Under the pieces are notes generated by a model, which was not told where the DNA came from, ran no database searches, and saw nothing but the letters and a program-made list of their open reading frames with translations. This document shows positions 18,267 to 64,000 of a stretch of DNA of 64,000 nucleotides, piece by piece; positions within the stretch are counted from its first letter, which is position 1, and every line of letters begins with the position of its first letter. The stretch covers positions 4,092,001-4,156,000 of the forward strand of contig CM102285.1 of NCBI GenBank assembly GCA_046563655.1, written 5' to 3'. The position numbers and the translations under genes were made by a program. The stretch is from Yuukianura sp. NJ FZ-2021. Its lineage: Eukaryota.

Positions 18267-21200
18267 ATGTCACTTTTAAGTCATCAAATGGTTTCCAATT
18301 CTTATTTACCGAATGGGGTTCATCCCAATTTTGTTACCAGTGTTCAACTGTGTTTTACTTGCACACAAGTAAGAGCACCACTGGAATGTACTTCTTTCGT
18401 TCTGGAATTGCAAAGTTTAGCCAGCAACACGAAAGCCAAATTAGACATTCTGGAGGTCATTTGTCAATTACTAAGAGTGAATTGTGGGTCACTTAAATCT
18501 CTGGTTCGGGAATATGACAACCTTCCATTTTGCCCATCCTGTCTCAAAGTCATCACGGAAATCATCATTCTTAGAGAGAAACTGTTTAAAATCGAAGCAA
18601 ACATTAGAAACAAACTGAGTAAACTTGAAGCGTTTGTAGCTCAATGTTTTCAGACATCTGAAAACGAAACTAATGAAAATGTTTACGACGAATTTTTACT
18701 TAAGTACGATGACCTCAGGAGTACATTCCAAAAGAAAGTGATGAAAGGTGAGATTTGATAACAGAAACATTTAGTGGTATAAGTTACATTCTTTCATAAC
18801 TTGTGAAAAACACATTTCGAAAAGCGTATTTTTAAAAAGTCATCAGCATAGCATTGTTGTTATTTTTTAGAGTACTTGAATAAAGAGCTACTGCAGCGGA
18901 AAATCTTAGAAATGAATCAGAATACAAACGTACTTATCACAGAATCCATTCCTTCGATGGTTCAACTGAATTTGGACAAAAATGTTTTTTCAATCGTGGA
19001 CTGGAAGCCGTCTTTGGAGGTCAGCACAATTGAGTTTCCAATTCCGCTGGCAATGACTGATGCATCGACTGATACTAAAAATTTGGAAACTTCGAAAGAA
19101 AAAATTGAAGCGTTCAGAAATGCTGAGTTCGGTGCTTTTGAAAAAGATGATGATGATGCTGATGATGATGAGAAACCTCCCGTTCTTGAAGTGCAAGGGA
19201 ACTGTACAAGCATTCAAATTTCGGATTTTGAAGAAAATTTCAGTCTTGTCCCTGCCATGACGGAAGTAAATGTCAGTGACGACAGCGACTACGGTTCACC
19301 CAGGTAAATCTTTGCTTATTCATTAAAAAGTTTGAAAAAATAATTTGCTTAAAAAATTTAATTTTCATTTAGCAAGAAGTCAAAAACTGAGATAACACAA
19401 GTCAAAGAACGCCCCCAGCTTATGAAAAATCAACGACGCCGAAAAGCAGTCCTTGTAGCAAAGAAAAAACTCTTTACTAAAACGAAAAACAAAAAGTCGT
19501 GCAAAACTTTGGGGTCCGAAGTATGCTGGAAGGATATTTTGGTGAAAAATACAAAAGTGAATCCTGTTCCTACTAACACTTCAGAAAACCAAAAAACACA
19601 GAAATCAATGAGTAAGTCTTTCAATTGTCAATTAAAATGTTCGAAAAAATTCAGAGTTCCGAATTTGTCTTTTGAATAACAAAAGGACTGGTAGCGGGTA
19701 GTACATAATTTTCATGCAAAGCTAAAGGTAACTAGGCTTATGCATTGCATTGATTTGATTAATATTTAAAAAATTTGTATGGAATTTTGTCGTCCGCATT
19801 TTGTCTAAGTACCACAAGATGTTGTAAGACAAATTTAAGTAACACAATTTTTTTTTTAATTTTTAGTTGATGATTCTGGGGAGGAATGTGAGGACGATGA
19901 AGGGGAATGCTCTGGTTGGTTGATAGAGAAACAGGATTCATCCGAATCCTCATCAAGTGACAGCGATCGCGAAGAACCGGAACTGGAAGAACGTGATGAA
20001 AAAAATGTTGATGCTCAGGACAAACCGGAGGACACGACAGCAGTTTCTATTTTGGAAATTTGCAAGAGACTGCCAACTTCGGACAATTATAAAAAGCACA
20101 AATTCAAACCAAAGCATTCACTTCAATCTGCTCCAAACCAAAACAAGCCAAAATACGTTAGGCTTATTCAGCAAGAGGCAGCATTTACTGCTAAAGATAA
20201 AACAGTTTGGACAACTAAGGAACCCAACCAGCGTAGAAGAATAAGGGCACATAAAATTCTAAAAGAAGATGGCGGCTTAGAGGGCCCTGCGCAGGACAGC
20301 AGTTTGAGTCCAACGGAGCTCTTTAAACTCATGTTCCCACCGGCCATTGTAGAAACTATTGTCAAACACACCAACTCTTACGCTAGACATATGCACATTA
20401 AGAATCCAAAGAAAAATAAGCTGGGTGATGTGATAAAGTGGTCCCCTGTTACGGTAGAAGAAATTTATGCTTACATTGGAATCCTACTGTACTTGGGAGT
20501 TGACAAGAAAGGGTAAGATGAAACTGCGGTAATGGTATTTCTAAAAAAAAATACGTTTGGTATTATAAGTCTTACGTTTGTAAAAACTTATCAAACAACG
20601 CTTTTATTTTTGCTTTCAAGTAATACGAGTTATAAAGAAGTGTGGACATTGGAGGAACGCTATGCCATTCCTGTCGTTGTGGCTACCATGGGAAGAGATA
20701 GATTCGTAAAAATTCAAAGCTTCTTGAGATTTGATGACAAAGTAGCACGCATGACCTCGTCTGACGAAAAGGAAATCGAAGATGACGGGGATTCCAAGTT
20801 TCGGTATGTGTCAGAAATATTTGAGCCATTTGTGGAGAATATGCAAACACACTTGCGTCCCTACGACACACTCATTGTGGATGAAATGCTTGTGAAATTT
20901 CGAGGGAGTGCCAAATTCCGAGTTTACATGAAATCCAAGCCTGGAAAGTAAGCATTATACCAGTCGGTAGTCAGTTAGTAGTGGTTGGTTGCAATAAGTA
21001 AAGTAACTATTAATATTTTGCTCTAAAGGTATGGAATTAAGTTCTGGGCTGTTTGTGACGTTGAGACTGGCTACATTTTGAAAATTGCACTTTACGAGGG
21101 GAAGGTTTGCGACCAAGTGGAGAGGGAGCATGGAAAGAAAGTCGTTTTGAATTTGGTTAAGAAATATTTTGGTTCTGGCCGCGGAGTGACGATGGACAAT

Positions 21201-23437: not shown

Positions 23438-26400
23438 ATGTCACTTTTAAGTCATCAAATGGTTTCCAATTCATATTTACCAAATGGAGTTCATTCCAAT
23501 TTTGTTAACAGTGTTCAATTGTGTTTTACGTGCACACAAGTAAGAGCACCACTAGATTCTACTTCTTTGGTTCTGGAATTTCAGAGTTTAGCAAACAACA
23601 CGGAGGCGAAATTAGACATTCTGGAGGTCATTTGTCAATTACTAAGAGTGCGTTGTGGGTCACTTAAATCCCTGGTTCGGGAATATGACAACCTTCCATT
23701 TTGCGCATCCTGTCTCAAAGTCATCACGGAAATCATCATTCTTAGAGAGAAACTGTTTCAAATCGAAGCAAAAATTAGAAACAAACTGAGCAAACTTGAA
23801 GCGTTTGTTGCTCAATGTTTTCAGACTTCTGAAAGCTGCACGAAAGAAAATGGTCAGGAAGAATCTTCATTTGAGTACAATCACCTTAGAAGCACATTCC
23901 AAAAGAAAGTGATGAAAGGTGAGGATTGATAACAAAAGCATTTAGTTGTATAAGTTTCCTAACTTTTGAAAAACACAATTCGATATGCGTATTTTTAAAA
24001 AGTCATCAAAATTTTGTCTTTTTTTAGAGTACTTGAATAAAGAGCTACTGCAGCGGAAAATCCTAGAAATGAATCAGAATACAAACGTACTTATCACAGA
24101 ATCCATTCCTTCGATGGTTCAATTGAATTTGGACAAAAATGTTTTTTCAATCGTGGACGGGAAGCCGTCCTTGGAGCTCAGCACAATTGAGTTTCCAATT
24201 CTGCTGGCTATGACTGATGCATCAACTGATACTAACGATTTGGAAACTTCGGAAGAAAAAATGAAAGTATTCAGAAATGCTGAATTCGATGCTTTTCAAA
24301 ATGATGATGGTGATGAGAAGCCTCCCGTTCTTGAAATAGAAGGGTACTGTGCAACCATTCAAATTTCGGACGTTGAAGAAAACTTCAGTCTTGTTCCTCT
24401 TGGGCCGGAAGTAAATGTCAGCGACGACAGCGACTACGGTTCGCCCAGGTAATTTTTTTTTCCACATTGAGCAATTTCCTTCGAAAAGGAACCTCAGATA
24501 CTTAATTTTCATTTAATAGCAAAAAGGCAAAAACACAGATAATACAAATCAATGACCGCCCTCAACCTATGGAAAGCCAGAGACGCGGAAAAGCAGTCCT
24601 TGCAACAAAGAAAAAACTCTATACTAATAAAGAAACGAAAAACAAAAAATCATGCAAAACTTCGGGGTCCGAAGTATGCTGGAAGGATATACTTACAAAG
24701 GTGAATCGTGTTGCCAGTAACACTTCAGAAAACCAAAACACACCGAAATCAAGGAGTAAGTATTTCAATTATTGCCGATTAATATGTTCGAAGAAATTCA
24801 AAGTTCAATCAATTTCTACAAAAAAGCAGAGTTGCGATTTTGTCTTTTGAATAACAAAAGGACGGTTAGTGGGTATTACATATTTTTTACAAAGCTAAAT
24901 GCTACAACGCTTGTGCATACTCTATTGCATTGATTTGGTTAATATTTAAAAAATCTGCACAGACTTTTGTCTTCCCCATTTTGTCAAAGTGCCAGAAGAT
25001 GTTCTAAGAGAAATGAAAATTTCAGTAACAGAATTTTTTTTGAATTTTTAGTTGAGGATTCCGGGGAGGATTGCGAGGAAGATGAAGATGAATGCTCTGA
25101 TAGGTTGATGGAGAAACAAGATTCATCCGAATCCTCATCAAGTGACAGCGATCGCGAAGAACCGGAACTAGAAGAACGTGCTGAAAAAAATGATGATGCT
25201 CAAGACAAGTCCGAGGACAGGACAATTCCTATTTCAGAAATTTGCAAGAGACTGCCAACCTCGGATATTTCTAACATGCACGAATTCAAACCAAAGCATT
25301 CTCTGCATTCTACTCCAGACCAAAACAAGCCCAAATATGTTAGGCTCGTTCAACAGGAGGTAGCATTTACTGCTAAAGACAAAACAGTTTGGACTACAAA
25401 GGAACCCAACCAGCAAAGGAGAATAAGGGCGCATGAAATTCTGAAAGAAGATGGCGGCTTAGAGGGCCCTGCGCAGGACAGCAGTTTGAGTCCAACGGAG
25501 CTCTTTAAACTCATGTTCCCACCGGCCATTGTAGAAATCATTGTAAAACACACCAACGCCTACGCTACACATATGTACATTAAAAATCCAAAGACAAACC
25601 AGTTGGGCGATGTGATAAAGTGGTCCCCTGTTACGGTAGAAGAAATTTATGCTTACATTGGAATCCTACTGTACTTAGGAGTTGACAAGAAATGGTAAGA
25701 TGAAAAACGTTAACAATATTTCCTTGTCCAAGATTTTCACATTCGGTTTTATAAGTGTCTTGCATTTACAAAACACACATCAAACGACGTTTTTGTTTCT
25801 TCTCAGTAATATGACTTATAACGAGGTGTGGGCATCAGAAGAACGATATGCCATTCCTGTCATTGTGGCTACCATGGGCAGAGACAGGTTTGCAAGAATT
25901 CAAAGCTTCTTGAGATTTGACGACAAAGTAGCACGCATGACCTCGTCTAACACAACGGAAATGGAAGATGATTTGGACTCCAAGTTCCGTTATGTTGCAG
26001 AAATATTTGAGCCATTTGTGGAGAATATGCAAACACACTTGCGACCTTACGACGCACTCGTTGTGGATGAAATGCTTGTAAAAGTTAAAAGGAGTGCCAA
26101 ATTCCGAGTTTACATGAAATCAAAACCTGGAAAGTAAGCACTTGAACCACACTTACTTATTGAGCCTAACCTTGCACCACACTAATATAACTGCATGTAA
26201 TAAACCCGCTAACGATTAATATTTTGCTCTAAAGGTATGGACTAAAACTCTGGACTGTTTGCGATGTTGAAACTGGATACATTCTGAAAATTGATCTTTA
26301 CGAGGGGAAAGTTGGTGAACAAATGGAGAAGGAGCATGGGAAGAAAGTCGTTTTGAATTTGGTTAACAAGTATTTTGGCTCTGGACGTGGAGTGACGATG

Positions 26401-31440: not shown

Positions 31441-34250
31441 ATGAACGTTTTTATAAATTTCTTAGTATTTTTTTTTGTTTCGGAGGCGGAGGGCGAATGG
31501 TATATCACGGTAAGTAAGACTTATTGTAAGCAGGCAATATTAATACAGAGCGTGTAATTACTCATAAACAAAAAAATTCAATATAATACACACTATATTT
31601 TTATTTCTAAAGGAAAACAAAATAATACTGGAAGGAAACGAAACTTTTTTGGAGGATTTCGAAGGAGTTGACAAAATGTTAACAGTCGATGGTCACTGTG
31701 CACTAACAGAAGTGGAATTGAAGTTTGTGCGCGTGAGGAGATCCACACTCGCTAATTTTTTAACACATTGCAACAATTTGACAACTTTGAAGTTGACAAA
31801 AGTAGAGTGCAAGTGGAAAACTGAAAAGTATTTTGAAAAAATTTACCTTCCAAATTTAAAATTTTTTGAATATGACCAAATTGGAGATCCATCCAATGCC
31901 TGGAACCCCCGCGAAACGTTAGAGTCTGCCATCTTCTTTTATACAAATGCAAGCACAGGAAGTGGAATAATCACAGTACTCCAGAATTTGACTTTCGACA
32001 TATCTTGCTCTAGTGCACAAGACGAATATTTGAGATTGAGCAATTCAATGTTGGAAGGTAGGAAGATTAAAGACGGCACCATTTGGAGAATGCTGTACGG
32101 CATAATTCCAACGTTCAAAATATTCCACGCATGGCACTGCACAATTGATGTGAAGTCATTGAACTTGACCTCTGTCGAAACTCTGTACTTGAAATACAAT
32201 GACCTCATCGGCGGTACCATATCACAGCTTATTCAGTCTGCTGTTGTCCTCCAAAATCTAACAATTTATAGCAAAGTTCCTGAAGCAATAGACGTCGCAC
32301 TTCTTCCCGTCAATTCACTCTTCAGAATTCAAACAGAATCGTTGAGTTTCCGCTTCAACTCGGCTCCTCCTCACTTAAGACAACAGTTCACCAAGCTATG
32401 GTGGATTTTCGTTACCTTCGGTGACATTGACCTCGGTATCTTCAATTTATCTAAAGGATTTCGATACCTTGGCCTATACAATTCAAACTTGTGGAATAGT
32501 ACAGTAAATGACATTTTGAAAAGTCGTGAATTGAAATATCTGTCCATCAATTGTCAGTATTTGGATGAAGAGTGTCCTGAAATTGACCTGGGGTTACCCG
32601 CATTGCAGTCGCTAGAAGGCTTAAATTTGCATTCTGTTGACGTCATGGTCTTAATGTTACCAGTGCGGGCGTTATTAAACGTAAAAAATTTGACACTCAT
32701 GAGGTGTACAATAGACGATACAATTGTAGACAATATTGGCAGTATTTTTCCAAGTGTAGTGAGAGTTAAGTTGGAGATGGAGGATGTTTTATCTGAAACG
32801 TTGCTGTTAGGATTTGTAAAAACCCGACCTCGGCATTTCTACATCAAAATGCCTGTCTACGATATTGAAGAAACGGTCAAACGTCAGTTTATGAAAGTGA
32901 TCAAAAAAATTTTAAACGCAACAATCCCCGACAACACGTTTGTAGGACAAAAGGTACTACTGTTCACTTTAGGTGACACAGATGGCTATCGGTTTGCTCG
33001 CGTCGTTCGTTCCCGCTTTCTCAGGAAAGAGTACAGAATTGCGCATTTTTTGAAATTAAATGGATACTCAGAAAAACAAATAACTTCAATGCTGTTGTCA
33101 CACATTTACTACACCTACATGACATTTTTGTACTTCATTTGTGGTATGGGACTAATTTGCAACTGCTTGAGCTTCGTTGTGCTCATGCGTAAAGTAATGC
33201 GCAGTTCAACAAGTATACTTCTATTGGGACTCACATGTTGCGATTCGATGTTCTTGATTGCAGCGTTTGTTACGTCGGAGGAATTCAGTAACTTATTTCT
33301 TGAAAAATTCCGGCGCTCGAAATGGAATGGATACGTTGCTCATCCAATCAGCAAGACAAGTAAGCATACGTTTTAATTTTATGTCTCTAGGTTCGTAATA
33401 GATTAAAAATAGAATATATGTACAAGAATATACCTCATTTTCAGTGTACACAGCCTCTGTATACATGACGATATTGGTTACGGTGGAACGCTTTGTTGCA
33501 ATTTCGAAACCACTCCATGCGTCATCAATGTTTACAATTCGCAAAGCACGACGTTACACAATGCTAGTATTCGGATTTGCAGCATTTTTAAATTTACCTC
33601 GGTGGTTTGAATTTATAAAATGGAGCTACGAAGCATCGTCTCCTGAGTGGAGCACATACTTCCCGCGTCAGTTGCACAGATACCCACTCTATCAACTTAT
33701 TTACCAGCAAGTATTGTGGTACACATTCATCTACTTGGTTCCCTTCGTTACCATCGTTCCACTCAACATACTTATCATTCCAAAGGTAAATTTCAAAACA
33801 AAAGTTATACAAAAAAAATCATGTTAAATGTTTAAGGTGACCAAAGCAGCGAGAGAGCGGCGCCTCACTGCAACCAGAACCACACACACTACTCCCCGTG
33901 CCCATGACAGTTCTCTGAGCAGATTGCTGCTTTCAGTTGTGTTTGTGTTCATCCTGCTTAACTCTGTGGCAGCTGCACTGGAACTCAACTTTATTCTGAA
34001 TGGAGTGGAGCCTGAAGTGGCAGCCACAATTGTCTCTCTCCCCATACTCATCAACTCTGCTCTCAATTTCATCCTCTACTCATTTCTCGGGTCCAAATTT
34101 CGCACACAGCTTAAACGTCTACTAAAAGAAGTTGCAACATGGATTTCAACTAAATGTACTTCTAGAAGAATACGCGGGTCTAATACAATGGAGTTAAGCG
34201 AACGTAGTTACGTAACTACATCGTCCCATGTTAGAAGTTTAAGAAATTAA
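31441..34250 (+). CDS. Class A GPCR (FMRFamide-receptor-like 7TM) with signal peptide and large leucine-rich-repeat-like ectodomain, ~856 aa
   Basis: Exons 31441-31509, 31613-33359, 33445-33785, 33837-34250 are in frame. Signal peptide MNVFINFLVFFFVSEAEG; LxxLxL units (NLTTLKLT, LPNLKFF, VETLYL, LQNLTI, LKYLSI, LEGLNL, VKNLTL); 7TM motifs GLICN, L.CCD, TASVYMT..VTVERFVAI.KP, NLPRWFE, INSALNFILY...SKFR. Confidence 0.85.
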
Positions 34251-36778: not shown

Positions 36779-39700
36779 ATGAATTTGTTCACGAATTTCT
36801 TAGTACTTTTGGTTGTTTCACAGACCAAGGGCGAATTGTATATCGATGTAAGTACATCAAAACTTAGTTGGAAAATGTTTATATAAATTAATATAGAACG
36901 TTTAATTATTTCTTAAAAAAACAATTCAATATAATACATGCTATATATTTTGATTTTTAAAGGAAAATATAATGATACTGGAAGGAAATAAAACTTTTCT
37001 GGAGGATTTGGACGGAGTTGAGAAAATGTTAGGAGTCGATGGTGAGTGCACACTGAAAGCAGTGGAATTGATACTTGTGCGTGTGAAGAGATCTACACTC
37101 GTAAATTTTTTAACCAATTGTACCAATTTGACAACTTTGAAGTTGACAAAAGTAGCGTGGGAGTGGAAAACTGAAACGAATTTCAAAAAGATTTACCTTC
37201 CAAATTTAACATATTTTGCATTTGAACCAATTCGTGATGCACAATGTGCTGAGAGCGTCGGAGAAGAGTTAGAGTCGGTCGTCTTCTTTTATACAAATGT
37301 AAACACAGGAACAGGGATATTCACAGTACTCCAGCATTTGAAGTTTGACATTTATTTCTTTCCTGCACAAGATGGATTGTTGCGATTGAGCACGTCAACG
37401 TTGGAAGTAAGGAACATTAAAGATGACGCCAGTTGGAGACTGTTGTACGGCATGATCCCAAAGTTCAAAACATTCCAAGCAGAGTACTGTACAATAGATG
37501 TGAAGTCGTTGAACTTGACCTATGTCCAAACTCTGTCTTTGCGCTCCAATGACCTCATCGGTGGGACAATTTCACAACTTATAAAGTCAGTTGACCTTCA
37601 ATCTCTACATATTTACAGCAAAGTTCCTGAAGCAATCGCAATTCTTCCACCCAAATCACTCGTGAGAATTGTAACAGAATCGTCGAGTTTCCGCTATAAC
37701 TCAGCTCCTCCTCACTTAAGACAACGATTCAACAAACTACAGGAGATAAGAGTGACCTTTGGTGACATTGACCTCGGCATTTTTAATTTATCCAAACAAT
37801 TTAACCGACTTACAACTCGTATTTGTGGAATACTAAACTTGATGATATGTTGAAAAGCCATGAATTGGAAGTTCTGTCCATCAACTGTCAGTATTTGGAT
37901 GACGGGTGTCCCGTAGTTGACCTGGGGTCACACGGATTGGGGTCAATACGAGGGTTGTCGTTGCAGTTTGTTGACATTAAAGCCAAAATGCTGCCAGTAC
38001 GGCCGTTGTCAAGTATAAGGCATTTGACATTCAAGAGGTTTACAATTGACCACAACTAACAACTTTAAACAATATTGGCACTATTTTTCCTCATGTAGCG
38101 GTAATTGAATTGGATATGGAGGATGTTTTAGATGAAACATTGCTTTTACAATTTGTAAAACACGGAATTCAAAATATCTATATCAAAATACCTGCGCATG
38201 ACCCTGGAGAAAAGGTCAAAGGTCAATTTCAAACAGTCATCAAAACAATTTTAAACGCAACATTTGCCGATCACACATATAAAGGAGAACACGTAGTATT
38301 GTTTACCCTAAACGGGGCAGATGGATACAGGTTTAGCTATGTACGAGCGGACACATGGCTCAGAAAAGAGTACAGGATTGTACGTCATTTGAAATTACAT
38401 GGATTGTCGGAAAAGGAAATAACTACAAGGTTGTTGTCACAAATCTACAACACGTACATGGCATTTGTTTACTGCATTTGTGGCATTGGACTGGCTTGTA
38501 ACTGCTTGAGCTTCGTTGTGCTCATGCGAAAAGCAATGCGCAGCTCAACGAGCACACTTCTCTTGGGACTCACATGCTGCGATTCCATGTACTTAATGAC
38601 GTCGTTTGTCACGTCGGACGAATTCGGCAACTTGTTTCGTGATAAATTACTGCGCTCAAATTTGAATGGATATTTAGCTTACCCAATCAACAAAACAAGT
38701 AAATATTTAAGCTTACAATCATTATATACTTGAACTACTTGTATGTTTATTATATAAACTATGTCATAATACGCTTATTCTTTTCCTCTAGTGTACACAG
38801 CGTCGGTGTATATGACGATTTTGGTTACGGTAGAACGCTTTGTTGCAATTTCGAAACCACTGCAAGTATCATCAATTTTTACAATACGGAAGGCACGACG
38901 ATACTGTAAGTGTCAAAAAGGTCAACGGGCCACTTCGAGCAAGTGCCCTACCCGATTGTCCACTTAGCGTAGGGGCGTGGTCACCTGGCGCTAGAAAGGC
39001 CAATTAGGTCTCGTAAAAATCGAAGTTACACCCTTAAGGGGTCCGTTGAACCGGTCAGCAGACCCACTTCGCCACCTTGGGCAGTCAAAGACTACCCGCG
39101 TCGGTGGCGCGGAGTGGACGCTGAAGGGACTCCTAATAGACAGGGGCCCACTTAACTGTACGCCCCACCTCCTTGGGTCAGTCGCAACTGCCCGTGTCGG
39201 AGGCGCAAGGCGCACGAAGGGAATTCCGGTGGAGGGAGCCCTAACCTTTTGACGGGTGAACCCGTCCAGGAGCCGACAGGCCCTGATCCCTTCCCAGTCC
39301 CGGTCCCTCAAGTCTTCTAACCAATAATTGAATTGTTGAGCTTTGTTTGTTATGTACCTTGGCTTTTAGCTTCCTTGTCTGCTGGAGAGGTCCTAGCTGC
39401 AGTGAATGATCTCAAGCTGTCCCTTGGAGGCAGGAAGAAATGACGAAGAGTGAAGTGGAGAAGCTTCTTGAAAACTTTGGTTTTTAAATTTTATTTTTCT
39501 TAAAAGGAAGTTTTGAACTTTAAAATTTTCGAATTTCTAACTTGAAAGTAACAGCTAAGAAGTAAACTTAAATCGAAATCTAACTGAAGGAAATGATCTT
39601 CGTTTGCATGCTTGCACCCTATATTTATAGATGTTACTTTTAGTTGCTACCCTGCAACTCTTGACATTGTATTTTTCGCAAATTTTGAGAAATTTGCAAC

Positions 39701-49300: not shown

Positions 49301-52300
49301 CGTTGCGTCACAGTAATAATACGTTTGGGTTTCATCAAAAGTGAAACCTTTTAACAACCGGGGTCTCAGAACTATTTTTCAATTTGCTTTTGTTATTTTC
49401 ACTCCACCTTGCTGAAAACATTTGAAATCGATACCACGGAAAAGAAGTTTCATCTCCTCGCTTGTAGTTGAGTTTAATTACTCATTAACTAACTAAAGTT
49501 AATTGACTTAATTGCCCTAATAATAGAATGCTTAATTTCAGAAAGCACATATTTTAGCAACCAGCTTGTATTTGAGTTCAATGCCTCTAATTAACAAATT
49601 GAAATTAATTAAGTTTTAGACCACTATTGGAATGCTTAATTTCAAAAAGTATTGAAAGCAGCTTCTTCAGTCAGTGTCAGGCGTTACATCCTAATCTAGA
49701 CGTATACATCGTTCAAATTCAATTAAATGAAAATGAATGAAAATGTTTTTAACATGAAATTTTTGATTTTGATCCTGCAGATCCTGCCCTACCGCGTAGC
49801 TTGCAATTAATAGTTCAATCTGCGATGTTTCCACCATACCAAGGTCCTACTGCTGATACAACAATGGAATTGGAAACACCCGAGGAAGAATTATTCCCTC
49901 CGTGGCCACAAGGACTTCTTCCACCACCACCGTTGCCACCCACAACTCTGCCGAAACACTGGAAAATGAACGTGGATGATGAAGGACGATGTTACTATTA
50001 CGATGTCCGAACACGAATATCTCAGTGGACACCTCCATCTCCGAACTCTGAAGCCAACTCGGACTCAGAAGAATCAGCAGGAGAGGATAGTGAAGAAGAG
50101 GGCGATAGCGTAGGTGCGACGACTAGCGGAGATGAGTCAGCCCTATCCGCGTCTGGGGATGCTGCGGAGGACCAATCGAAGGCTCTTCAAAAGTTTCAAT
50201 CATGGATGAACAACAGATCGGAGAGAAGGAAACGCTCAGGTTTAGTTACCGAAAGGATCATAAGCGTAAGTCCTTCATTTTTTAAAGGCGCACATACTAC
50301 AATCTACGCAAATATGCTTTTTTGAAATGATGTGAAAGCTGAAGTGTTGAAACTCTTTTGAAGGTAGATCAAGCTTGCAACGGTTTTCATACTCACTCTT
50401 CTAAGTCTATCCTGTATACATCCTCGTCGAGTATTTATCAATGCCAAGGAAATGAATTGAAGCGGAAGATGATTTTGTTAGATGAGGGTTTTGTGTTGAA
50501 TCTACTATACATCATTGAACGCATAGATCATCTTCCATTCATTCTTCATTTTGCATCCTATCGAGCATTTTATAGATTTGCAACTGTAAGCATGTTTACT
50601 GCTTATTCAGTATTCACCTCGATGCTGAAATCTGTAGGATGAGTGTCACAAAGCACTCAGAAAATCACTTCATTTTCCAGGGAAAATATGGGAAATAGGA
50701 GAGCAAAAACGTTCGTGTCATTCCCTTATCCGGTTTACTTTTTTTTTTACTTTTGTTAACTACTAACGAAGCGTCTACTAATTTAGTTTTGCGATGTTTT
50801 GTTTGGAGTTTACAAAAGGCGGGGGTGGAAACGAAATTTGATTACTGTATGCTGTGATCAGCTCAACCTGGCCGTAAGACTGCAAGTTTCTGATACCGAA
50901 TAGTGTAGCGGTTGTCGCTTAAAATGTCCCGAACATTATAATGTACTATAAAAGACTTATAGCGAAAGATTCATTGCATCGAACAGAGAGATGCAAGATG
51001 CTAGCTTGAGTTCTTTTAAACTTTTAAACGTGTTTTGAAAACAAATATACAGACAGATAAGGTTTCTATCATATTCATATCCGAAGTTGTTCAATTTTGA
51101 AATTCATTATGAAAGTCAGTCATACTGTTTTGCGGGAGAAAGGAACTGAAGGCTCCTTTTCATTAAAATCTTAACTTCTGGACGGGTGACAAAAGTAGAA
51201 TTATTCCAGTTCCTCTTCTTCTGAAAACTTTCTTTGTGAGATTGAGATTGTTTTTACAAAGGAATTCTTTCTTTGTTTTCTTTGTTTCTTAAATTCATTC
51301 TTTGCTCTTTTCGTGCGAATCTTCTGAAAGAAGTTGTGTAAACTTTCATTCTGCCTGAACTGATGTTCGTAGTCCACGTTTGAGTAGGGTTAGGGGGGTA
51401 TGGCGTTTCTTCGTTTGTTTTGTCGAAGAAGAGATGTGAAATGGAGCGCGAACGCAAACTGAAAGCATTTCTAGTGGTTCTACGAAAGTTATCGGATTGA
51501 AGTTGTTCTAATAGTTTTATTGCTGGATAATTCCATGCGTTCTTCGATACGATTGACTTTGTAATTTGCGTAAATTGGAATTCGTAATTATCCAAATTCG
51601 GCTGGATTTTGTCTAGCAAAATCTAGTATTTAAGGCGTTTTTGAGGTAAACTTTAAGATTTTGCACGCTTTGCGGGTGTTTGGTGTTGTACTAGGATTGT
51701 AATGTAGATTAGACACGTAGGTAACAGTTCAATTGAGTTTAAACCTGATTTCACATTGTCTTGGTCAAGAAAAACAATAATTTTTACACCTAGGACAAGC
51801 TTTTACATAGAACGACCTGTGACGCGGATTGTACTACCTTGGAAAAGTCGTTTTTACTTAACGTCTACTTAACTGAAAATATTTCACCAGTGATATTACA
51901 GATATTTGATAGTATCGGCTGCTTCAAAGTGCATGAATGGTTCCACAATTGGCTTTGTTATGAGAAAGTCCCTGGCCCTGGGAGACTAAGCTCCTGTAAG
52001 AAACTAGGAAATTTTTTGTGCTCATCGTCTGCTAGAAATTATGAGATTGAGGAAAGTTTGCTTTCTCCCTAAAGAATTGGTTTCTGAGTTGAGTCGTGCT
52101 TACGAGAGTGAAATGAACCATTCATAAAACAAAAGGCCAAATCAAATCTTGGTAGCTTTTGTTTTCTGTACTCTTCAGCTATGCTGTTACATAATTCATC
52201 AGATGGATAGAAGAAGATGATTTAATTTATCTCGGCAGAAGGAACTCTTCCTTGCTGTGCTTGACAAAAACAATTACCAAGAAGGAACGGAATTTATTTC

Positions 52301-53575
52301 GTAATCTAAAATTGGAATTTGGTTTCCTTTTTGTTTCTTCGTTTCAGTTGCGTTTTTTTTTTGTTGTGTTTTAAGTAAAAACAAATTTTGGTCTCATTAA
52401 TTTTTTTGTTCTATTTCTAGCCGAGAAGTGAAGAGGACAAGTCATTATCTTTCATAAGTCAAAGTGCCATTCGTGAAAACAAGTTGCAAGCCGCGGAGCG
52501 GAAAGGAAAGAAAGTCACAGAAGTGCAAAGTTCTGTTTCCAGTGAGGTACCGCAGGAAGCGAAGGATGCCAAGAGTGTAGTGATGTCTGGACAAGTCGGA
52601 AATAATCTATTTCAGACCGAAAAGAGAATGGAAATGGATGAAGACGAACCATCCAAGCATGGAACTAAGCAATCACCAAGTCCCGTGCCAACCGTTCAGA
52701 AGCGTGAGAAATCCAAAGTACAGGGTCCAGCGACCAGTCCAGGTGAACATGAGTATAGTCCTGGCACGAAAACAACTTCGGACATTGGTCCCCAGAACCA
52801 GAACCAAGTTTTGCCGGATATCGAGACTCTTAACTTGAATGAATCCCTGGATAAAAGCGAGGAAAGTGTGGAAGTCATTCCCGGACTTCTGGATGGTACA
52901 ACTGCAGCCATTAACGCTGGAGATGAGAAAAAGAGTCCCGCTGCTGGATTTGTGTGCAATAGCCCTGCTGGTTTAGCCGCAGCACCCACTGAGACTTGCT
53001 CTGAACATCAGCATTTGGGCGAAGAGAGGTCAACCAAAAGAAAGCACAAAAAATCGAAACATGCACATGGCAACGTTCCCTCTGCCACCAGTCACCACCA
53101 CCCACAATCCAGCGGAAGTTTGTCCAAAGAAGGACATGAACGAGAGCGGATGAGTGATGATCGAAAAACTAAGGCGGCAAATGTAGAGGCATTTAGAAAT
53201 CAAATTGCCAACGTCATTGTGCAACACTTGAATCCTTATAGAAAATCCAGTTGTAAAAATGGTCATATTTTGAGCAATGAGGACTTCAAGCACTTGGCAC
53301 GAAAAGTAAGTTTCCTTTTACGAACTGGATATTCATTTCTTGTTTTCCTGACTAGAAATAAATATTTAACTTTACCAATAATTATAACTAAATCGCCTTT
53401 CTTTGTTTTTCAGATGACCCATGCCATAGCTCTAAAGGAGATGAAACACAGCAAAGATGGGAAAACGATTGTTGTGAACGATAGTGTGAAGCATAAGACA
53501 AAAGAGTACGTGAAGAAGTACATGGGAAGATTCCAAGGGAACTACATCCGATCTCCGGAAGACACGCAATCCTAA
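43338..53575 (+). CDS. SETD2: Histone H3K36 methyltransferase Set2/SETD2, multi-exon
   Basis: AWS (CDC...CNENCLNRLLMVEC), SET (KGHGLR, EYIGEV, RFINHSCDPN, EEITFDY), post-SET (CFCLASNCRG), LFLDYHGL, WW domain (HWK...GRCYYYD...QWTPP) and C-terminal SRI (LNPYRK...EDFKHLARK|MTH...KTKEYVKKYM). Confidence 0.95.
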
Positions 53576-54267
53576 ATCCGATTTTATAGTTACTTTTTCT
53601 ACACTTTTTTCGTAATGAATTTAGTACCTAGTTTCATGCCCGCGGTATAAATGAGTTAAAGTCTGCAAGGTGAAAAAGTTTAAGTTTTTGTTGGCGTATA
53701 TAAATGCGTAAATAAAAATAAATGTAATTTACGATTCTCTGTAAACTGTTTCATGATTTTAATAACGACCAAAAAATTTTATGCCTCACAGTTTCACAAA
53801 TTCCGGTGAACTAAAGCCGAACTAAGGTTACCGTTAAATTGATTCGTGTCAAAGGTGAAATTGACTTCTCAAGTGAGAAATTAAATGTTATTTAGTTAAT
53901 AATTTTTTTCAACTCTTGGTTACAAGAATTGATCGCACGTACGCTCTGCTAACATTATTTTAAACAATCAAAACTTTCACTTCCACTTTCTCCTTTGCCT
54001 GTTAGGGTACTTCTCGATTCTCGTATTATTCGATATACGTGTTACCCAATTCCAGTTTCAGCATGTTGTGGACACTGACGTGTCGTGACCCAAAGTCAAC
54101 ATTGACTTTTGACCTCACATTTTCATACTCTTGGCATCTTTTTGTACCCGGAATGACTCTCCTGATAGATCCGCCTAACCTAAACCCGGGTTCATTCGGG
54201 TCTTACCCAGTCAAATCTAGGTAGCGGGTTGCTCCATCTTTATTCTTATTTTTTGCCATGTTCAAGA

Positions 54268-55829
54268 TCACTTGAAGTGTCGCGGGTCAAAGATGCATGA
54301 TATTTTAGCACCCATGACGCTCAATCTGAAATGACCTTCAGCCGTCATGAGGTTCTCATAAGGAGTTTCGTCGAGGAAAATACGCTTCCACATCAAGATG
54401 GCTATGTATGTTTGCCTTTCCAGTAACATCGGAAACACTGGTATTGTGATCGTCTTCCTCCAGAAGTTAATTGTTAACTGTACATGGGTAGGTTTTCTTC
54501 CGTACCATTCCAACTGCTCCTTAAGGCGTTCCAGCGTTTCCTCGGTCAACCAGTATACGTGGAATTGAAGAGCGTCAAAGTTACGAACATTGTCTGTCAA
54601 TGTAAAAGAAATAAGATTTTCGTGTAAATAATTATAGTATACACCTTGCCGCCATGTGTATGTACTTACTACGGCGAAAGTTTTTGGCACAGTTAACATT
54701 CTTTATGTATCTTCTGTCTGTTACTCGCGTGGGGTCGTATCCACGAGCAACTGCCATAATGTACTCTGCTTGCTCGTGTCCAAAATTTCTCCTCAACCAT
54801 GCAAACGGAACTCGCTGAAGTTCACCCATTGTACTAATCCCACACTGAATTAATTGTCCTTTCACGTAGGGGTCCAATGGTGATAATTTTTTGAGTGGCA
54901 GAAGCCAAGAGTTGATCCATTTGTTGATTCCCGCCTTGGATAGAACAGATAAGGATCCTGGTGGATTGAGGCCACAGGCAATCTTTGCAAGCATCTTGTT
55001 TGGACCAATCCCAGCAGAGCAGTGAAACTTTGTTGCGGAGTGAACTCTTTCTTGGAGATTTGAGCATAGCTTCGAAGCGATTTGAATCTTGGCTTCATAT
55101 TCGTTTTGTGGCTTATAATTCTGAACTGGCGATTCCCGGTTTGTGTGCAGTGGCCATTTCAAAGCTGACGCTTCGACAAGTCTCATGCTGCACAAGTAGT
55201 ATGCGTGTTCCAGATTACCATTTACTGGGATATCGTTGTCGAACATGTAGTTGACCTGATCTGTCATGTCAATGTACGTTTCATCTTGTGGCACCCAGTA
55301 GAGTATGGGTGGATATTCCCATTGCGCAGTGCATGTTTCAATGACTTTGAATACATCATGTCTCGCACGCCGGAAGAGGGTTTGGTCGGGCTTGTTGTTT
55401 GGCAAATTTGGCTGTACAAATTGCTTCAAATTTTTGCAAATCGCGAGTGCTTCCTCCAGTTTTACGGTGTTGTCGATTTCAAGTTGTTTGGCTTTGTCAT
55501 TGGCGGAAATTATTCTGGAAATCCAAAACACAAATAAAAAGATTAAAGTAGAAAAAAGTATTTTTCATAGTTTAAATTTTAATTAAGTCTATATTATCAA
55601 CAATTGAAGCATTTAACTTACCAGTTAACGTAGAAAGTTGTTATTATTATTATGAGAGAATTTGTAATTCAATATAATCCTACCTTCCAGACGTTAAAAC
55701 GCTGACAGTCGGAAAGTCGTCCCAATTGGTGTCCCCTATTTCTTTTGCCATTACTTGTGTGGCAAAAGTGTACACGTCAATTAATCCTATATAGCGTGAC
55801 ATAAATTCGGTACCGAAGGTTGCCTCCAT
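54268..55829 (-). CDS. Divergent Y-family DNA polymerase, Pol eta-like, catalytic core only (~438 aa)
   Basis: Exons 55829-55684, 55514-54670, 54593-54268 total 1317 nt in frame. Motifs IGLIDVYTFATQV, PQDETYIDMT, CSAGIGPNKMLAKIACGLNPP, ARGYD, CAKNF, ETLERL. Confidence 0.85.
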
Positions 55830-56170: not shown

Positions 56171-59002
56171 TTATGTTAGCACACCACACTTCTTCAAATT
56201 TTGACAAAATGGTATCTTATCCGCAAGTAGCAGAGCAATTGCAATTAGTAAACCAACACCATATAAGCAAAAACACGTCAATACATTACTGTTCAAAGCA
56301 AGTCGTTTTGGCTTCGAATCAGTGTGTTGTTGCTTTTTTTGATACTTTAAAACGATTTTAGCATCATCCGTTGGGTGATGAATTTTTATCCACTTGTCCC
56401 AAATTTGAAATATTCCTGAAGACAACAACAGTTGTATTCTGGCATACAATTGGGCATGGTACTTATGACCATAAAATACAAAACCAGTCCAGTAGCCGTG
56501 AATTTTGTTGCTCTTTCGGAAAGTCGCGCCGGTGTTCGTCGGATCTCCTTCAAGTTTCCGGAGTTCGTTAGCTGCATGTACTGCATCAACTGTTTCTGTC
56601 GTACCAAAAACGACTGATTTGTCAAGGACAAGTGACGCATTGATATAATAATCCATTATAACTTCTTTTATATCTTCCATTTCAATTGAAGACTTATTAG
56701 GCCCCGTTCGAAATGAAACTTGTGCCAATATGAGCTGTTCTGGGATTGGATGCTGAATTCCGCATCCTTTTTCCAACAGAAACCAATCGAAAGCCCACAT
56801 CAACTCTTTGTGTGTACTTCCAAGTCGATTCATGTACTCTTGCAAACGTAATCCGACGATAGTACTTGAATTGTCTGGTTTAGGGAATGAGCCAGATGCA
56901 TTCCTATACCAGGATTTTACAAATCCTGGTATTACGTTGTGGGCAATAATTGGCCTGTACCTAGTACGAGTCAAACCATTACAGGAAGGAAACCGTTCCC
57001 TCACATCATTATTTAGTAGCTCGATTAGCTCAATCAGAACGTTTCTAGGGTCGAAATCCAGAATAACAACAAAATTGTTAATGTCGAGTAGCGTTTTATA
57101 CCGAGAAGAAATAGGAATTGGGGCCACGAGATCCGTCACCACAACTCCCTTGTAGCCATTGATTAAAACAACGCACGTTAAGCTCCATAGTCCAATCATA
57201 ACGCGGAACCAATATTTGACTAAAAGTGGTTTCACATTTGCTGTGACCTCGTAGCCTGCTTCGAGTAGGGATCGGTACACAAGCCATTGAAAATCTGCAA
57301 GCAGTATGGATGGGTTTGTGCCAATCTTGAGCGTGACGTCTGCCACTGCCATGAGGCAAGCGCAGCTAGGTACGGCAACGAACGCAAAGATTGCAATGTG
57401 TAACCATGACAACCAGTCATAGGTTCGGTAGTACAATGAGAAATCCAGTGTCTGTTGTATTCCTTTAGTCGTCGTGTAAGATAATTCTAATTCTCCAGTG
57501 GGTATGGCAGTGAGAACACGAAATATTGGTCCATGTCTTAACCGTTGTAACCATACTTCGTGTGACACTGTTTGCTCCATGAACCCATTTAAATATGCTT
57601 TGAACAGCTCATCCTGCAATATTGGTTCATAGGCAAGGAAGGAAATAGTTTCAAAGGCAATTTGCTGCATTGCAACTTCAATGTTGGTAACATTCGGATG
57701 TTTTACAAACGGTAGCAGATTGGACTCCACTATTGGAACTTTGTAGTACTCTTTTTGTTGCAGAAAATTTGTTTGGTTCTCTGTTTGGTACAAGAAGTAG
57801 TAGTTCCTACCCAGTCCAATCCTACGATGGAAATTTTTAATTTCCATAATAAAACTTTGGTTTGATATATTTGTATACTCCATCCAATCTCGTTCTTTAA
57901 ACAGTTTTGCTGCGTACGGAATGACTATTAATTTGGTAAAATGAATTGTTACTGCCTTTCTGCTTATCTTCCTTTGATTCAAACTGATTGGCTTCACGTA
58001 GTGAATCAACTGAAATGTGTTTTGATTTGTAGAGCCAGAGCGGTAGATCTTCAGCTTGGATTTCATTACGGTGTGTGTCAGTGTCGTTACAATGTTGTAG
58101 TAGAAAACATGTGAGGATGCTTGGATCTGTCCATCAACAGATTTGCGCCCAGTATTATAAATGTAGCCAAATTCAAATGTAGATACTTTATCGTGTTTGC
58201 TAACTTCTGGGAACATTACAAAGAGTGCGTAACACGAATAGCCATTTCTCGGGCGTATAAGATGAGACTGCTTCTGAGTTGTGCATTGTTTCTTGTTTCT
58301 GAAAGTTAAAGGAAATCAATTTTAAAATTATATTACACGATTAACAGTTTTCTCTGCTGGTAGAGTAAGATATCCTTCGCCGCCTCTCCCGTCTCCCAAC
58401 CCCTTCAAATTTTCTCGTTACCTCCATTGCCCCCACCGGATACATACAGTGCACCCACCCATTGCCAAATGTATCCATCCGGTGGGGCAATAGGTGGGTG
58501 GATCCAATGTATCAATGCACTGTATCTACCCGGTGCGGTGGTGGCAATTGAGGCAGCGAGAAAATTTGAACGGGTTGGGAGAGCCGACGAAGGATATCTT
58601 ACTCAAACGTCCAACCCTTTTAAAATGGCAGTAGTAAAAATAGTTGTCAAGAAAAAGTTTTGTTTTCAAAATACCACGATTACTTAAGTTAAGTAGTAAA
58701 CAACTGAAATTGAGTTACATGGCTACAGGTCTGCTGTTTTCGTGGACCATTGTTGTTTCGTTAAAAGTCAACAGAAAAATGGGTGTCGCAATTGACTGCG
58801 TCAAGTTGTAGTAATGCGTTTGAGGAATGTAGACAGTTACGTAGCAGCTGGAGAATTCTGCCACGACATCTTCCATGTTTTCAATGATATCCACAGGGTA
58901 ACGCATGCCGTAGTTGCTATTGTAATGAAGGTTGACAGTAGCTGCAATTAGCTGAACGGCCCATGTGATGACGCCGTAGAACAACATCAGTGCGCGGAAC
59001 AT
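56171..59002 (-). CDS. Divergent ionotropic-receptor-like chemoreceptor (~803 aa)
   Basis: Exon 1 59002-58719 (signal peptide MFRALMLFYGVITWAVQLIAA) and exon 2 58298-56171 are in frame. YDWLSW, YRSLLE, GLWSL..VVLINGYKG....DLVAP, LLSSGIFQIW, final TM. Confidence 0.72.
58363..58604. mobile_element. Palindromic MITE (~240 bp) in the IR intron
   Basis: GAGTAAGATATCCTTCG...CGAAGGATATCTTACTC plus further paired segments (TTCAAATTTTCTCG / CGAGAAAATTTGAA) running inward. Confidence 0.85.
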
Positions 59003-61071: not shown

Positions 61072-64000
61072 TTTTTTTTTTTACAATAAGAATGGAGTTT
61101 ATTATTCTTCAAAATAGATTTGGTTTTTCATAATGTGACTTAAACTAACGGTTATAACTTAGAAATAGTATAACTTAAAATTACAACCTAATTTCTACAG
61201 AATTTGCGTTAATATTAATAAATTGGGCATCTGACCAAAGAAGTCTGAATTGATCAAAGTCATTTTTACTTTTAAAACTATGGAAGCTTAAAAATATATT
61301 TTGGAACAGAAATTGCTTGTATTTGCCTACAATATCGAAATCTGTCTTACCAGAATTAATATTATAGATAAATCTATTATATAAAATATATATTGCACTA
61401 AAAATTAGATAGTTAGCAAATTCATCATTACAACCAAAAGTCTTATCATAAACCTTATTCTTTGAATTTGATCTTTTTAATAATGAGTGAACATATTCCC
61501 ACAATTTTTTTGTAGATATGCACACAATTAGATGAGAGCAGGAAGTCTTTGTTTGATGGCAGTATGGGCAACTGCCGTCTGAAATTAGGCCCATATACTT
61601 TGCAATATCGAAAGAAATAATGGCATTATGCCAAAATCTCCAAATTAAAGACTTAATATGAATGGGAAGTAACTTATTTTTCAATCTTTCCCATTTCTTT
61701 GATTCAAGTTTTTGTTTATCAATTAGTGAAAGTTTCTCGTAGTGAAACAATGAGAAAAAATCGTAATATATTCGTTTTTGTTACTGAACGGTACGTAATC
61801 GTCGAGAATTGGATTAAGAGCTTTCAATTTGACCTTTTCGCCTTTTGAAGATAAATTCTGTTTGAAAACTTTTAAATTTTCCTCGAAAGTTTTAATTTCG
61901 GTTTCAAATGACCGTTTACGAAAAATCGGAACGGTTAGATCCTTAATTGAAGAAAATTCAGAAATGTACTTTATTCCAAAGGATTCTAGAAGCTTTAGTG
62001 GTCTTGGGAAAATTGCCCTATTTTGTATACAAATTTTATTTAAAAGAAATTCTGGTAATTTTTGGAAATTTAGTTTGATCTTATGGATAGCGGTACACAG
62101 TTCAGAGAAATAGTCGTCTTCGTACGAATTTTCAAAAAGTATTTTGTAAGCATCTTTTTTTGATTCTTTCAAATAATAATGATTATCTGCTGTCTGGATT
62201 AATTCTTTTAAGTGGCGAATTTGAAATATAAAGCTTTGGACCTTGGGATGTTTAATCCCAAGTCCACCAAAGGACTTCGGCAAATAAATAAAAGATTTTT
62301 TTACCCAATTTCTTTTTCGTTCCCATATATATTCACAGACAATATCTTCAAGATTTTTGACAAAATTCTCCGGAGGTTTAAGAACTTTTAAAAGGAAGTA
62401 GGTGAGTGGGAGGATAAACGTATTTAGGATCCTGGATTTTAGAAAGAGACTTGAGTTTGGGTACTTTGTTTTGAATGAATCAACTTTTAACTTAATTTTT
62501 GTTATTAAAGAGTCCCAATTATTTTCAAAATTTTCTCCAAAGACAACACCAAGGATTTTAATCCGGTTTACAACTTTAAAATTTGTTTGTATATTTAGAA
62601 CTTTCCATTTACCAAAAAATAGAACTTCCGTTTTGGAGTCTTTAATCTTTCCACCTGAAAGCTTTCCATAGTTTTCAAATTCTTGGACTACAACATCAAA
62701 CTGACTCAGTGATGATATAAAAATAGTAGTGTCGTCGGCATATGCACTGATATTAGAATTGGGATAATTAAGAAAAGGACTTGGACCAATTTTAAGTAGT
62801 TTTGCAGACAAGTTTCGAATTAAAGGCTCTAAACACAGAATATATAAAGAAGATGCAATAGGATCACCTTGTTTTACCCCTTTACCAACTGTTATCTTAT
62901 TTGTAAGTCCATTACCATAGTTTACATGAACAAAGCTGTTCTTGTAAAGTATTTTAATTGAGTTAACAAAGGTGTCAGGGAATTCATAGTATTTTAAAAT
63001 TGAAAACAAATAATCGTGGTTTATATTGTCAAATGCAGATTCTTGGTCGATTGAAAGAATTGCACCATCGTTTTTATCACAAATGTTTTCTGATAAAAAT
63101 TTTAAATTGTGAAAAATATTTCTTCCAGGGACATTGCATGTCTGAGCAGAAGAAATCAAATCATCAAGAAATTTTGAAATTCTATTTTTAAAAACAGTGG
63201 AGAAGACTTTGTAATCCGAATTTGACATAATAATTGGTCTCCAATTCGAGAGGTTCATAGGGTTATCTTTTTTATAAATCAAGGTAACAATTCCACACTT
63301 AAGAGAGTCGGGCATTTCATCGCGAAATAAACATTCGCTCCATAGCCATTCGAATATCTTGGTAAATTCAGCAACAAATTTTTGAATCAATTCACTTGAA
63401 ATCCCGTCAAGACCAGGACACGTTTCATTCTTTAGTTGTAGGATTGCAGTTTTGATTTCCTCAGGGGAAATATCTTTAGAAAAATAATCAATTTGGTCAT
63501 TATTTAATTTTGGTAAAAGTGTGAAAAAGTTCTCATCTATATTGTTTTGAACCGTATTAGATTTAAATTTTGTAGAGAAAAAATCATAAAATAATTTTGT
63601 TTTGGTTTCGTCTGAAAAATTGTTGAAAACAGAATCAACAGTGACCTCACAGTTAACGTTGAATATTTTATTTGGAGTATATTCGAATTTGTCTTCGAAA
63701 CGTTCGTTATCTGTAATCAGATCAAAGAATTTGTTATGATTATTTTTCATAAGAAACTTCATTTCATTATAATTTGAAATTTTTAAGAAATGTTTGTAAT
63801 TTAAATAGGAAATTGCGCATTTTTTCAATTTCCACTTTAAAAGTTCATAAGAGGTGAACGTCTTCACATTCAAATTTAAAAAAACATTTAATAGTTGTTT
63901 AATTTGGACGATGAAGTAATCATCATTTAATATGTAATTTGGAAATTTCCAGATTCGAAAAGAATTTTGGTGTAGAAAATTAAATTTTGTACAAATCATT
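61072..64000 (-). mobile_element. Non-LTR retrotransposon, L1/Tx1-like ORF2 (RT plus C-terminal zinc finger), 5' part outside the window
   Basis: CPGLDG, NWRPI, DQESAFD, GVKQGDP, YADD, ILG, GGLG motifs; C-terminal CPYC...H..C; one frameshift near 61740; AATAAA and a poly(A) tail at 61072-61082. Confidence 0.92.

Follow-up and report, generated by a model that had tools for sequence, protein, structure and literature searches.

The genome of Yuukianura sp. NJ FZ-2021 (GenBank assembly GCA_046563655.1) carries an intact three-exon gene that encodes a Y-family DNA polymerase core derived from Pol eta, in which the aromatic steric gate is replaced by alanine while all three catalytic carboxylates are kept. 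The gene lies on the minus strand, at positions 55829..54268 of a 64,000-nucleotide stretch of contig CM102285.1 (positions 4,092,001 to 4,156,000 of the forward strand), which we refer to as the window. Together with two relatives from a metagenome it forms a branch of Pol eta-like Y-family polymerases that is conserved, has its active site rebuilt and was previously undescribed in the open-access literature. The reading we tentatively favour is that of an active polymerase that would be indiscriminate towards the sugar of its substrate, bind that substrate weakly and work untethered.

Exon 1 (55684..55829, minus strand, as are all features of the gene) begins with an ATG at 55829, and its 48 codons plus two nucleotides (nt) code for the N-terminal strand and motif I. 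A phase 2 intron of 169 nt (55515..55683, GT..AG, with the donor GTAGGA) separates it from exon 2 (54670..55514), which holds the Y-family fingers, palm and thumb according to its matches to Pfam IMS, to Pol eta in the PDB and to the fold predicted by AlphaFold 2 (AF2). A phase 1 intron of 76 nt (54594..54669, GTAAGT..AG) precedes exon 3 (54268..54593), which encodes the remaining part of the little finger and ends without a tail in a TGA stop at 54270-54268. The spliced coding sequence of 1317 nt translates into 438 amino acids (aa) with a single terminal stop. An in-frame stop is located directly upstream of the ATG, and an AATAAA hexamer resembling a polyadenylation signal by consensus match only (54239..54244, minus strand) follows 24 nt past the stop codon. 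An origin from a mobile element was considered and rejected: the GC content of the gene is about that of its neighbours, and the surroundings of the gene contain no convincing terminal repeats, only chance-like arms at 73-81%. An initial annotation, made from the sequence alone, had described an intact three-exon gene with exactly these coordinates, and the motifs quoted there are present in the translations: IDVYTFATQV in exon 1, and NDKAK, PQDETY and NKMLAK in exon 2.

Exon 2 alone matches the Pfam family IMS (PF00817) with an E-value of 6.1e-18 and 65.6 bits (cut-off 23.2), and its best relative in the PDB is human Pol eta (1.8e-18). The matches to other branches are those to Pol IV (6.6e-8), REV1 (3e-6), kappa (1.7e-5) and iota (2.8e-4). 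The short outer exons are silent when searched separately: against the PDB, exon 1 returns only chance-level rows (E 0.25, to the unrelated ORF34P2) and exon 3 returns no rows at all, while Pfam gives nothing for exon 1 and, for exon 3, no more than a chance match to SLATT_1 (0.054), with no match to IMS_C for any exon of the gene. Once spliced, the 438-aa protein aligns with a profile of 85 Pol eta cores at 1.2e-60 over residues 9-374. These cores were picked from the matches of the exhaustive protein search by a pattern demanding the canonical motif, which makes the profile canonical by construction; the column counts given below come from all 150 database homologues, aligned without pre-selection. 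The little finger (PAD) is present after the thumb, as seen both from the extent of the profile alignment to residue 374 and from the alignment with mite Pol eta through the last strand, and the protein ends about 12 residues past that strand. Its identity to canonical Pol eta proteins is 25-32%. By these sequence comparisons the protein is closest to Pol eta, and not to iota, kappa, REV1 or DinB. Pol iota (RAD30B), an older paralogue of Pol eta whose active site is specialised, serves as a precedent for duplication leading to altered active-site logic; the much weaker PDB match to it than to Pol eta shows that the gene is not an iota itself. The initial annotation had also considered a primase-like role. 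We rejected it: only IMS families are matched in Pfam, with no primase-type domain, and nothing suggests primer-independent initiation.

Structure prediction with AF2 was run on exon 2 and exon 3 separately. The exon 2 model has a predicted local distance difference test score (pLDDT) of 84.0 and a predicted template modelling score (pTM) of 0.78, with residues 110-128 as its only disordered stretch, and the top 50 PDB fold matches listed for it are all human Pol eta (best E 2.8e-11, TMq about 0.6). The exon 3 model (pLDDT 82.6) displays an alpha-beta-beta-alpha-beta pattern; the top 50 fold rows listed for it are all Pol eta or iota and all weak, the best having an E-value of 0.015 and none reaching E of 0.001 or below. 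In these models exon 3 and the strand ending exon 2 are predicted to form the little finger together. The models lean towards the Pol eta fold because canonical Pol eta was among the rows of both input alignments, and the positions of the gate side chains are taken from the alignment only.

The replacement of the steric gate is located in motif I (LIDVYTFATQVM, codons L16-M27, 55749..55784, minus strand). In the profile alignment IGLIDVYTFATQVMAKE aligns at maximal posterior under the consensus ialvDmDCFYvQvEqrl. The conserved Asp and the Gln-Val are equally far apart in both, so there is no indel or register shift between them, and Ala23 (GCC, 55763-55761) stands in the gate column. Its neighbours have changed as well: the conserved first Asp, D18 (55778-55776), is followed by Tyr20 at the position of the invariant second Asp, by F22 immediately before Ala23 and by M27 at the position of the invariant Glu. 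The gate column is Tyr in 89, Phe in 11 and Ala in 1 of 101 homologues. The profile alignment thus agrees with the ungapped alignment from which an Ala at the gate had initially been read, in a column that is aromatic in 100 of 101 sequences. The sole other Ala is that of protein P0084, in a first module whose catalytic Glu is missing as well. P0084 (919 aa) is a tandem double Y-family polymerase with a canonical-looking second module; its first module has Ala at the gate, Thr at the fingers Tyr position and Asp-Gly for Asp-Glu. With a degenerate Y-family module joined to an intact one, P0084 represents a separate case.

All three metal-binding carboxylates are kept, as had been proposed, and each occupies an invariant column: D18 is Asp in 97/97 homologues, D126 is Asp in 133/133 and E127 is Glu in 134/134. 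The catalytic pair Asp126-Glu127 (GAT GAA, 55280..55285, minus strand) is part of the block WVPQDE.Y.D.T..VNY, which does not vary in the family. Across the family the Asp-Glu pair is kept in 3/3 genes and the first Asp in 2/2. We take the human equivalents of the motif I and palm residues, in part from spacing, to be D15, F18, E22 and D115/E116.

Natural loss of the gate is known from mycobacterial DinB2/MsDpo4, where Leu replaces the aromatic residue and the enzyme adds ribonucleoside triphosphates (rNTPs), according to PMC4176160 and passages of PMC6846668; a passage of the latter also gives about 35-fold more rCTP incorporation for E. coli Pol IV F13A. DinB2/MsDpo4 resembles the family in the natural, conserved loss of an aromatic gate from an otherwise intact Y-family core. 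It differs in belonging to the bacterial DinB branch, in having Leu14 as its gate residue and in lacking a polar filter (Cys47, in a passage of PMC6846668), whereas the family has Ser52 at that position.

A HMMER search against 1.84 billion representative proteins yielded 1766 matches at E of 0.001 or below, only two of which reach 1e-30: P0004 (1.2e-57) and P0005 (4.8e-48). The next match stands at 3.8e-24, and ordinary Pol eta proteins are found at about 1e-19. Both close relatives are encoded on short contigs (L001 and L002) of a single metagenome. The L002 gene is complete, with 441 aa and four exons, and P0005 is a fragment of it; the L001 gene is without exon 1, which falls beyond the contig end. 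None of the 1182 candidates in a word-index search among longer proteins passed as a relative, and no synteny is detectable between the flanks of the window gene and those of L001 or L002. On viral contigs, a single one of 45 pattern matches encodes a relative, and this is an ordinary Y-family gene at 27% identity that lies outside the family.

The three genes have a common architecture. The phase 2 intron after exon 1 has the same position and phase in L001 and L002, and the phase 1 intron before the little finger matches in place in L001, with L002 having it one codon earlier. The two relatives also stop right after the little finger, so that the core-only length is common to the family. Pairwise identities are 40.1%, 42.0% and 35.5%, the last value being that of L001 vs L002 (35%). 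Motif I is conserved far beyond this level: LIDVYTFATQV is identical to L002 at 11/11 residues, the gate Ala included, in two genes that are about 40% identical overall, although 7 of the 11 codons differ synonymously (Ala, for instance, is encoded by GCC in the window gene and by GCG in L002). The remaining invariant blocks of the family, HCS.GI...KM.AKIAC.L.PPGSL and PLKKL.P, surround the metals together with the block of the Asp-Glu pair. The positions of human Y52 (D/K/H) and E22 (M/F) and the thumb loop, on the other hand, vary among family members.

Synonymous divergence (dS) by the Nei–Gojobori method (NG86) is saturated and undefined in all three pairs, so that no omega value results; nonsynonymous divergence (dN) is 0.58-0.70. 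Of the four-fold sites that underlie conserved residues, 27/68, 12/67 and 14/57 are identical. Open frames, shared introns and recognisable similarity at saturated dS imply purifying selection, and by these comparisons the family is a conserved lineage and not a decaying copy. Neutral evolution, which the initial annotation had named as an outcome that would speak against its proposal, is thus not what the sequences indicate. That the gene is a decaying or neutrally drifting duplicate, or an artefact of the gene model, is very improbable. Only three copies are known and many conserved residues are lost, as such a duplicate might have it, but the 438-codon frame is open with canonical splice sites, its AF2 models are confident, motif I has stayed the same under seven synonymous changes, and three copies retain 35-42% identity along with their frames and introns.

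The place of the family among its homologues was estimated with two trees. The first comprises 130 of the 152 aligned rows, with 21 short rows and P0005 left out, and the second comprises 45 rows under a site-heterogeneous model; both were quick searches, and both warn of long branches. The three family genes form one group in the 130-row tree, with a Shimodaira–Hasegawa-like approximate likelihood ratio test (SH-aLRT) support of 100. The stem of the family measures 2.08 changes per site in this tree (about 2.1-2.2 overall), roughly five times the median end branch of 0.43, and the end branches within the family measure 0.8-1.6. A long stem followed by shorter end branches fits a burst of change and subsequent constraint. 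The family falls inside a 15-row group with SH-aLRT of 99 (130 rows) and 98 (45 rows), subject to the long-branch caveat. Of its 12 neighbours in this group nine were looked up, and the four that are named, the lineage of three of which was checked, are all acariform mites: Halotydeus destructor, Dinothrombium tinctorium, Blomia tropicalis and Dermatophagoides farinae. This suggests that the family is an offshoot of acariform-mite Pol eta, and, together with the arthropod-like ORF next to the gene, that the window is probably of acariform-mite origin. Mite Pol eta proteins, themselves short, resemble it in the four-domain core, in the catalytic Asp and Asp-Glu, and in both Lys of NK..AK.

The C-terminus distinguishes the family from its mite neighbours in one respect only. 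Using regular expressions written for this analysis, we found the UBZ-like pattern absent in 12/12 canonical Pol eta proteins from the adjoining clade of mites (among P0006-P0087), against its presence in 75 of the 100 other homologues of at least 550 aa. The same 12/12 mite proteins carry a C-terminal [GS][FY]F motif, typically GFFYRKT.EL, which the family lacks. The 438-aa protein is without a UBZ, a PCNA-interacting peptide (PIP) or a region with a REV1-binding FF motif. The initial annotation was right that the protein stops after the little finger with no UBZ or PIP tail, but the absence of UBZ is not special to it: since the mite clade lacks UBZ too, this loss was inherited, and only the loss of the GFFYRK-type tail is new to the family.

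The grouping with mite Pol eta would also be expected if the gene were simply the only, fast-evolving orthologue of its lineage, still engaged in ordinary bypass of ultraviolet (UV) lesions with a compensated active site. We consider this unlikely. The gate and the equivalents of Q38, R61 and K231 are all replaced, the tail motif of the neighbouring Pol eta proteins is missing, the stem exceeds the median end branch about fivefold, and one metagenome holds two family genes that share just 35% of their residues. With its nucleotide-holding pocket rebuilt and then retained, the enzyme probably no longer does ordinary lesion bypass.

The gate is one of many replaced positions. We called a column near-invariant when 90% or more of the canonical homologues have one and the same residue there. 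Among the 56 columns of this kind, 27 are kept in all family members, 7 are mixed, 1 is a gap artefact and 21 are replaced in every member. The initial description of the protein as a Pol eta with a changed gate therefore holds for its derivation from Pol eta and for the Ala, but is too narrow for the extent of the change. In human numbering, K220, K224 and K231 were counted from the PDB alignment and Q38, R61 and S113 were taken from mutant names in PDB titles, while A49 is named in a passage of PMC6846668 and D13, Y52, R55 and R61 in passages of PMC4824119.

Canonical Pol eta has a Tyr or Phe gate and keeps D15, E22, Q38, Y52, R61, S113, K231 and the GGKxG loop, with Ala at position 49. In motif I of the family, D15 corresponds to Y20, F18 (the steric gate) to A23, and E22 to M27 (Phe in L002), in a column that is Glu in 99/101 canonical proteins. 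Next come V36, which is S43, and the base-pair contact Q38 (Gln in 99/104), which is L45. The fingers motif S52-N64 (SANDKAKQLEIDN, 55469..55507, minus strand) is remodelled according to the column counts: the polar-filter position A49 (Ala 105, Thr 5 and Ser 2 of 112) has become S52, Y52 (Tyr in 111/111) has become D55, with Lys and His in the relatives, R55 (Arg in 105/112) has become K58, and R61, the second base-pair contact (Arg in 104/117), has become N64. In the palm, the primer-aligning S113 (Ser in 125/133) is replaced by P124. The segment NKMLAKIACGLNPPG (54956..55000, minus strand) retains K222 and K226, and to this extent the retained Lys reported for NKMLAK is real; the triphosphate-binding Lys, human K231, which is Lys in 147/147 homologues, is Pro233 (CCA, 54964-54962), with Pro in all three family genes. 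The thumb loop LSPLDPYVKG (54857..54886, minus strand), which is variable within the family, stands in place of the glycine-rich LGGKxG loop that contacts the DNA backbone, whose Gly, Lys and Gly are found in 144/147, 134/147 and 135/147 canonical sequences. L45 and N64 are found in every family gene that covers those positions, and S52, K58, N64, P124 and P233 are common to L001 and L002. The rebuilt pocket would comprise Tyr20, Thr21, Ala23, Thr24, Ser52, Lys58, Asn64, Pro124 and Pro233.

Several of these positions have assigned roles. In yeast Pol eta, passages of PMC5264235 describe Y64, R67 and K279 as holding the incoming deoxyribonucleoside triphosphate (dNTP) and F35 as packing on its sugar, and report D30, E39 and D155 as essential in earlier mutagenesis. 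Yeast E39 stands nine residues past D30, and M27 likewise stands nine past D18. R61, R55 and Y52 of Pol eta act on the triphosphate and pyrophosphate (passages of PMC4824119). The polar filter is Ala49 in human Pol eta, Thr43 in Pol IV and Cys47 in MsDpo4, and a Ser or Thr in this position pulls the nucleotide to the fingers and strengthens rNTP exclusion, as given in passages of PMC6846668. By alignment, the family has exchanged its steric filter for a polar one, a Ser.

We favour activity, with reservations, because conservation within the family is highest in and around the metal centre, the residues of the new pocket are fixed and the tree has the form of a burst followed by constraint. 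A burst of change in a Pol eta-derived core along the stem lineage was followed by purifying selection on the new sequence. The resulting enzyme would keep metal-dependent, template-directed nucleotidyl transfer through the intact D18, D126 and E127. Its sugar pocket, opened by Ala23, would not exclude ribonucleotides in the manner of Pol eta, and a weak grip on the triphosphate would make it slow, with a high Km. Without a handle of the PCNA, REV1 or ubiquitin type it would not be recruited in the way translesion polymerases are. Relaxed sugar selectivity is a plausible part of this scheme and, by analogy with the gate-less enzymes, a reasonable guess.

A number of findings weigh against an active, sugar-indiscriminate enzyme. 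The replacement of 21 of 56 near-invariant columns in every member is extensive, and it includes the equivalents of yeast E39, reported as essential, and of Y64 and K279, which hold the dNTP (roles from passages of PMC5264235). The equivalents of Q38, R61 and S113 and the GGKxG loop of the thumb are lost in addition. The occurrence of Lys or His at the D55 position in the relatives indicates that this position is no longer constrained. With these contacts gone, the protein may bind neither nucleotide nor primer-template productively. Ser at the polar-filter position, found in 3/3 family genes, could partly restore sugar discrimination. Finally, only three sequences of the family are known, two of which include motif I.

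The same losses are what one would expect of a pseudo-polymerase, in which the Pol eta fold is kept as a non-catalytic DNA- or protein-binding module similar to ImuB and the carboxylates persist for structural reasons or for metal-dependent binding. Such a non-catalytic derivative is possible, and almost as likely as the active gate-less enzyme. The residues that position the substrate are lost together, the equivalent of human K231 along with those of the yeast residues named above; the thumb loop that binds the primer is gone; and the Y52 and E22 positions and the thumb loop vary as expected of sites that no longer work. Catalytically dead members of the Y family do exist: ImuB, which has the Y-family fold with much of the canonical active site lost, is described as inactive in PMC11791113 and PMC6511836. 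ImuB works through clamp- and partner-binding regions, however, whereas the family has no extra region, added interaction domain or tail for work as a scaffold. In addition, ImuB-type dead members lack catalytic activity, while here the catalytic triad is intact, and no part of the family is better conserved than the three carboxylates and the palm motifs that flank them.

Sugar discrimination by polymerases is usually studied with engineered gate mutants, and the only well-studied natural gate-less Y-family enzyme in the literature searched is the bacterial DinB2/MsDpo4. In the open-access literature we found no description of a mite Pol eta paralog, and nothing eukaryotic of the gate-less kind. 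It is conceivable, if on balance unlikely, that the family represents the first natural eukaryotic gate-less Y-family polymerase: mite-specific, Pol eta-derived, with a changed substrate and a rebuilt, conserved pocket, and free of control by PCNA, REV1 and ubiquitin. The changed substrate might mean ribonucleotides, short RNA patches on DNA or some other metal-dependent nucleotidyl transfer. If active, the family would be a natural experiment on what Y-family catalysis minimally needs and on how the sugar is selected, and it would point to a transaction of DNA or RNA that has gone unrecognised in mites. If inactive, it would be a eukaryotic counterpart of the ImuB-type pseudo-polymerase, undescribed in the literature searched.

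Directly upstream of the polymerase gene, on the same strand, lies an intronless open reading frame (ORF) of 714 codons (56171-58315). It has no Pfam match and no homologue in the word-index search. In a language-model atlas it is placed close to unnamed arthropod clusters (0.98) and to one labelled 'Ionotropic receptor' (0.92), and it probably encodes an ionotropic (chemosensory) receptor of the arthropod kind that has diverged strongly. Upstream of this ORF, a nested inverted repeat (58363-58604) with arms of 28 nt at 93% and 47 nt at 89% and an inner gap of 97 nt looks like a miniature inverted-repeat transposable element (MITE) or a hairpin. On the other side, a SETD2-like histone methyltransferase gene, represented by its 3' part (about 49753-53575, plus strand) with WW at 49753-50322 and SRI at 52421-53575, converges on the polymerase gene, with about 690 nt between the stops.

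Further from the gene, the minus-strand ORF at 61723-63999, which matches RVT_1 (1.9e-32) and runs off the window end, lies in a stretch with a GC content of 0.29-0.30 against about 0.39, and this reverse-transcriptase ORF is likely to belong to a non-long terminal repeat (non-LTR) retrotransposon. Two plus-strand ORFs (19860-20516 and 24943-25698) end in the first 54 or so positions of the piggyBac-type DDE_Tnp_1_7 model (about 1e-10). ORFs of similar size are repeated at a distance of about 5 kb, at 18252/23423 and 19860/24943, which suggests a duplicated segment with a transposase remnant. An Rfam search of the window found nothing. Two other plus-strand ORFs (31568-33376 and 38050-38733) weakly match the start of the Srw-type model of seven-transmembrane (7TM) chemoreceptors and peptide G protein-coupled receptors (1.3e-4 and 1.4e-5), and a minus-strand ORF at 396-1214 encodes multiple C2H2 zinc fingers (zf-H2C2_2, 2.7e-48).

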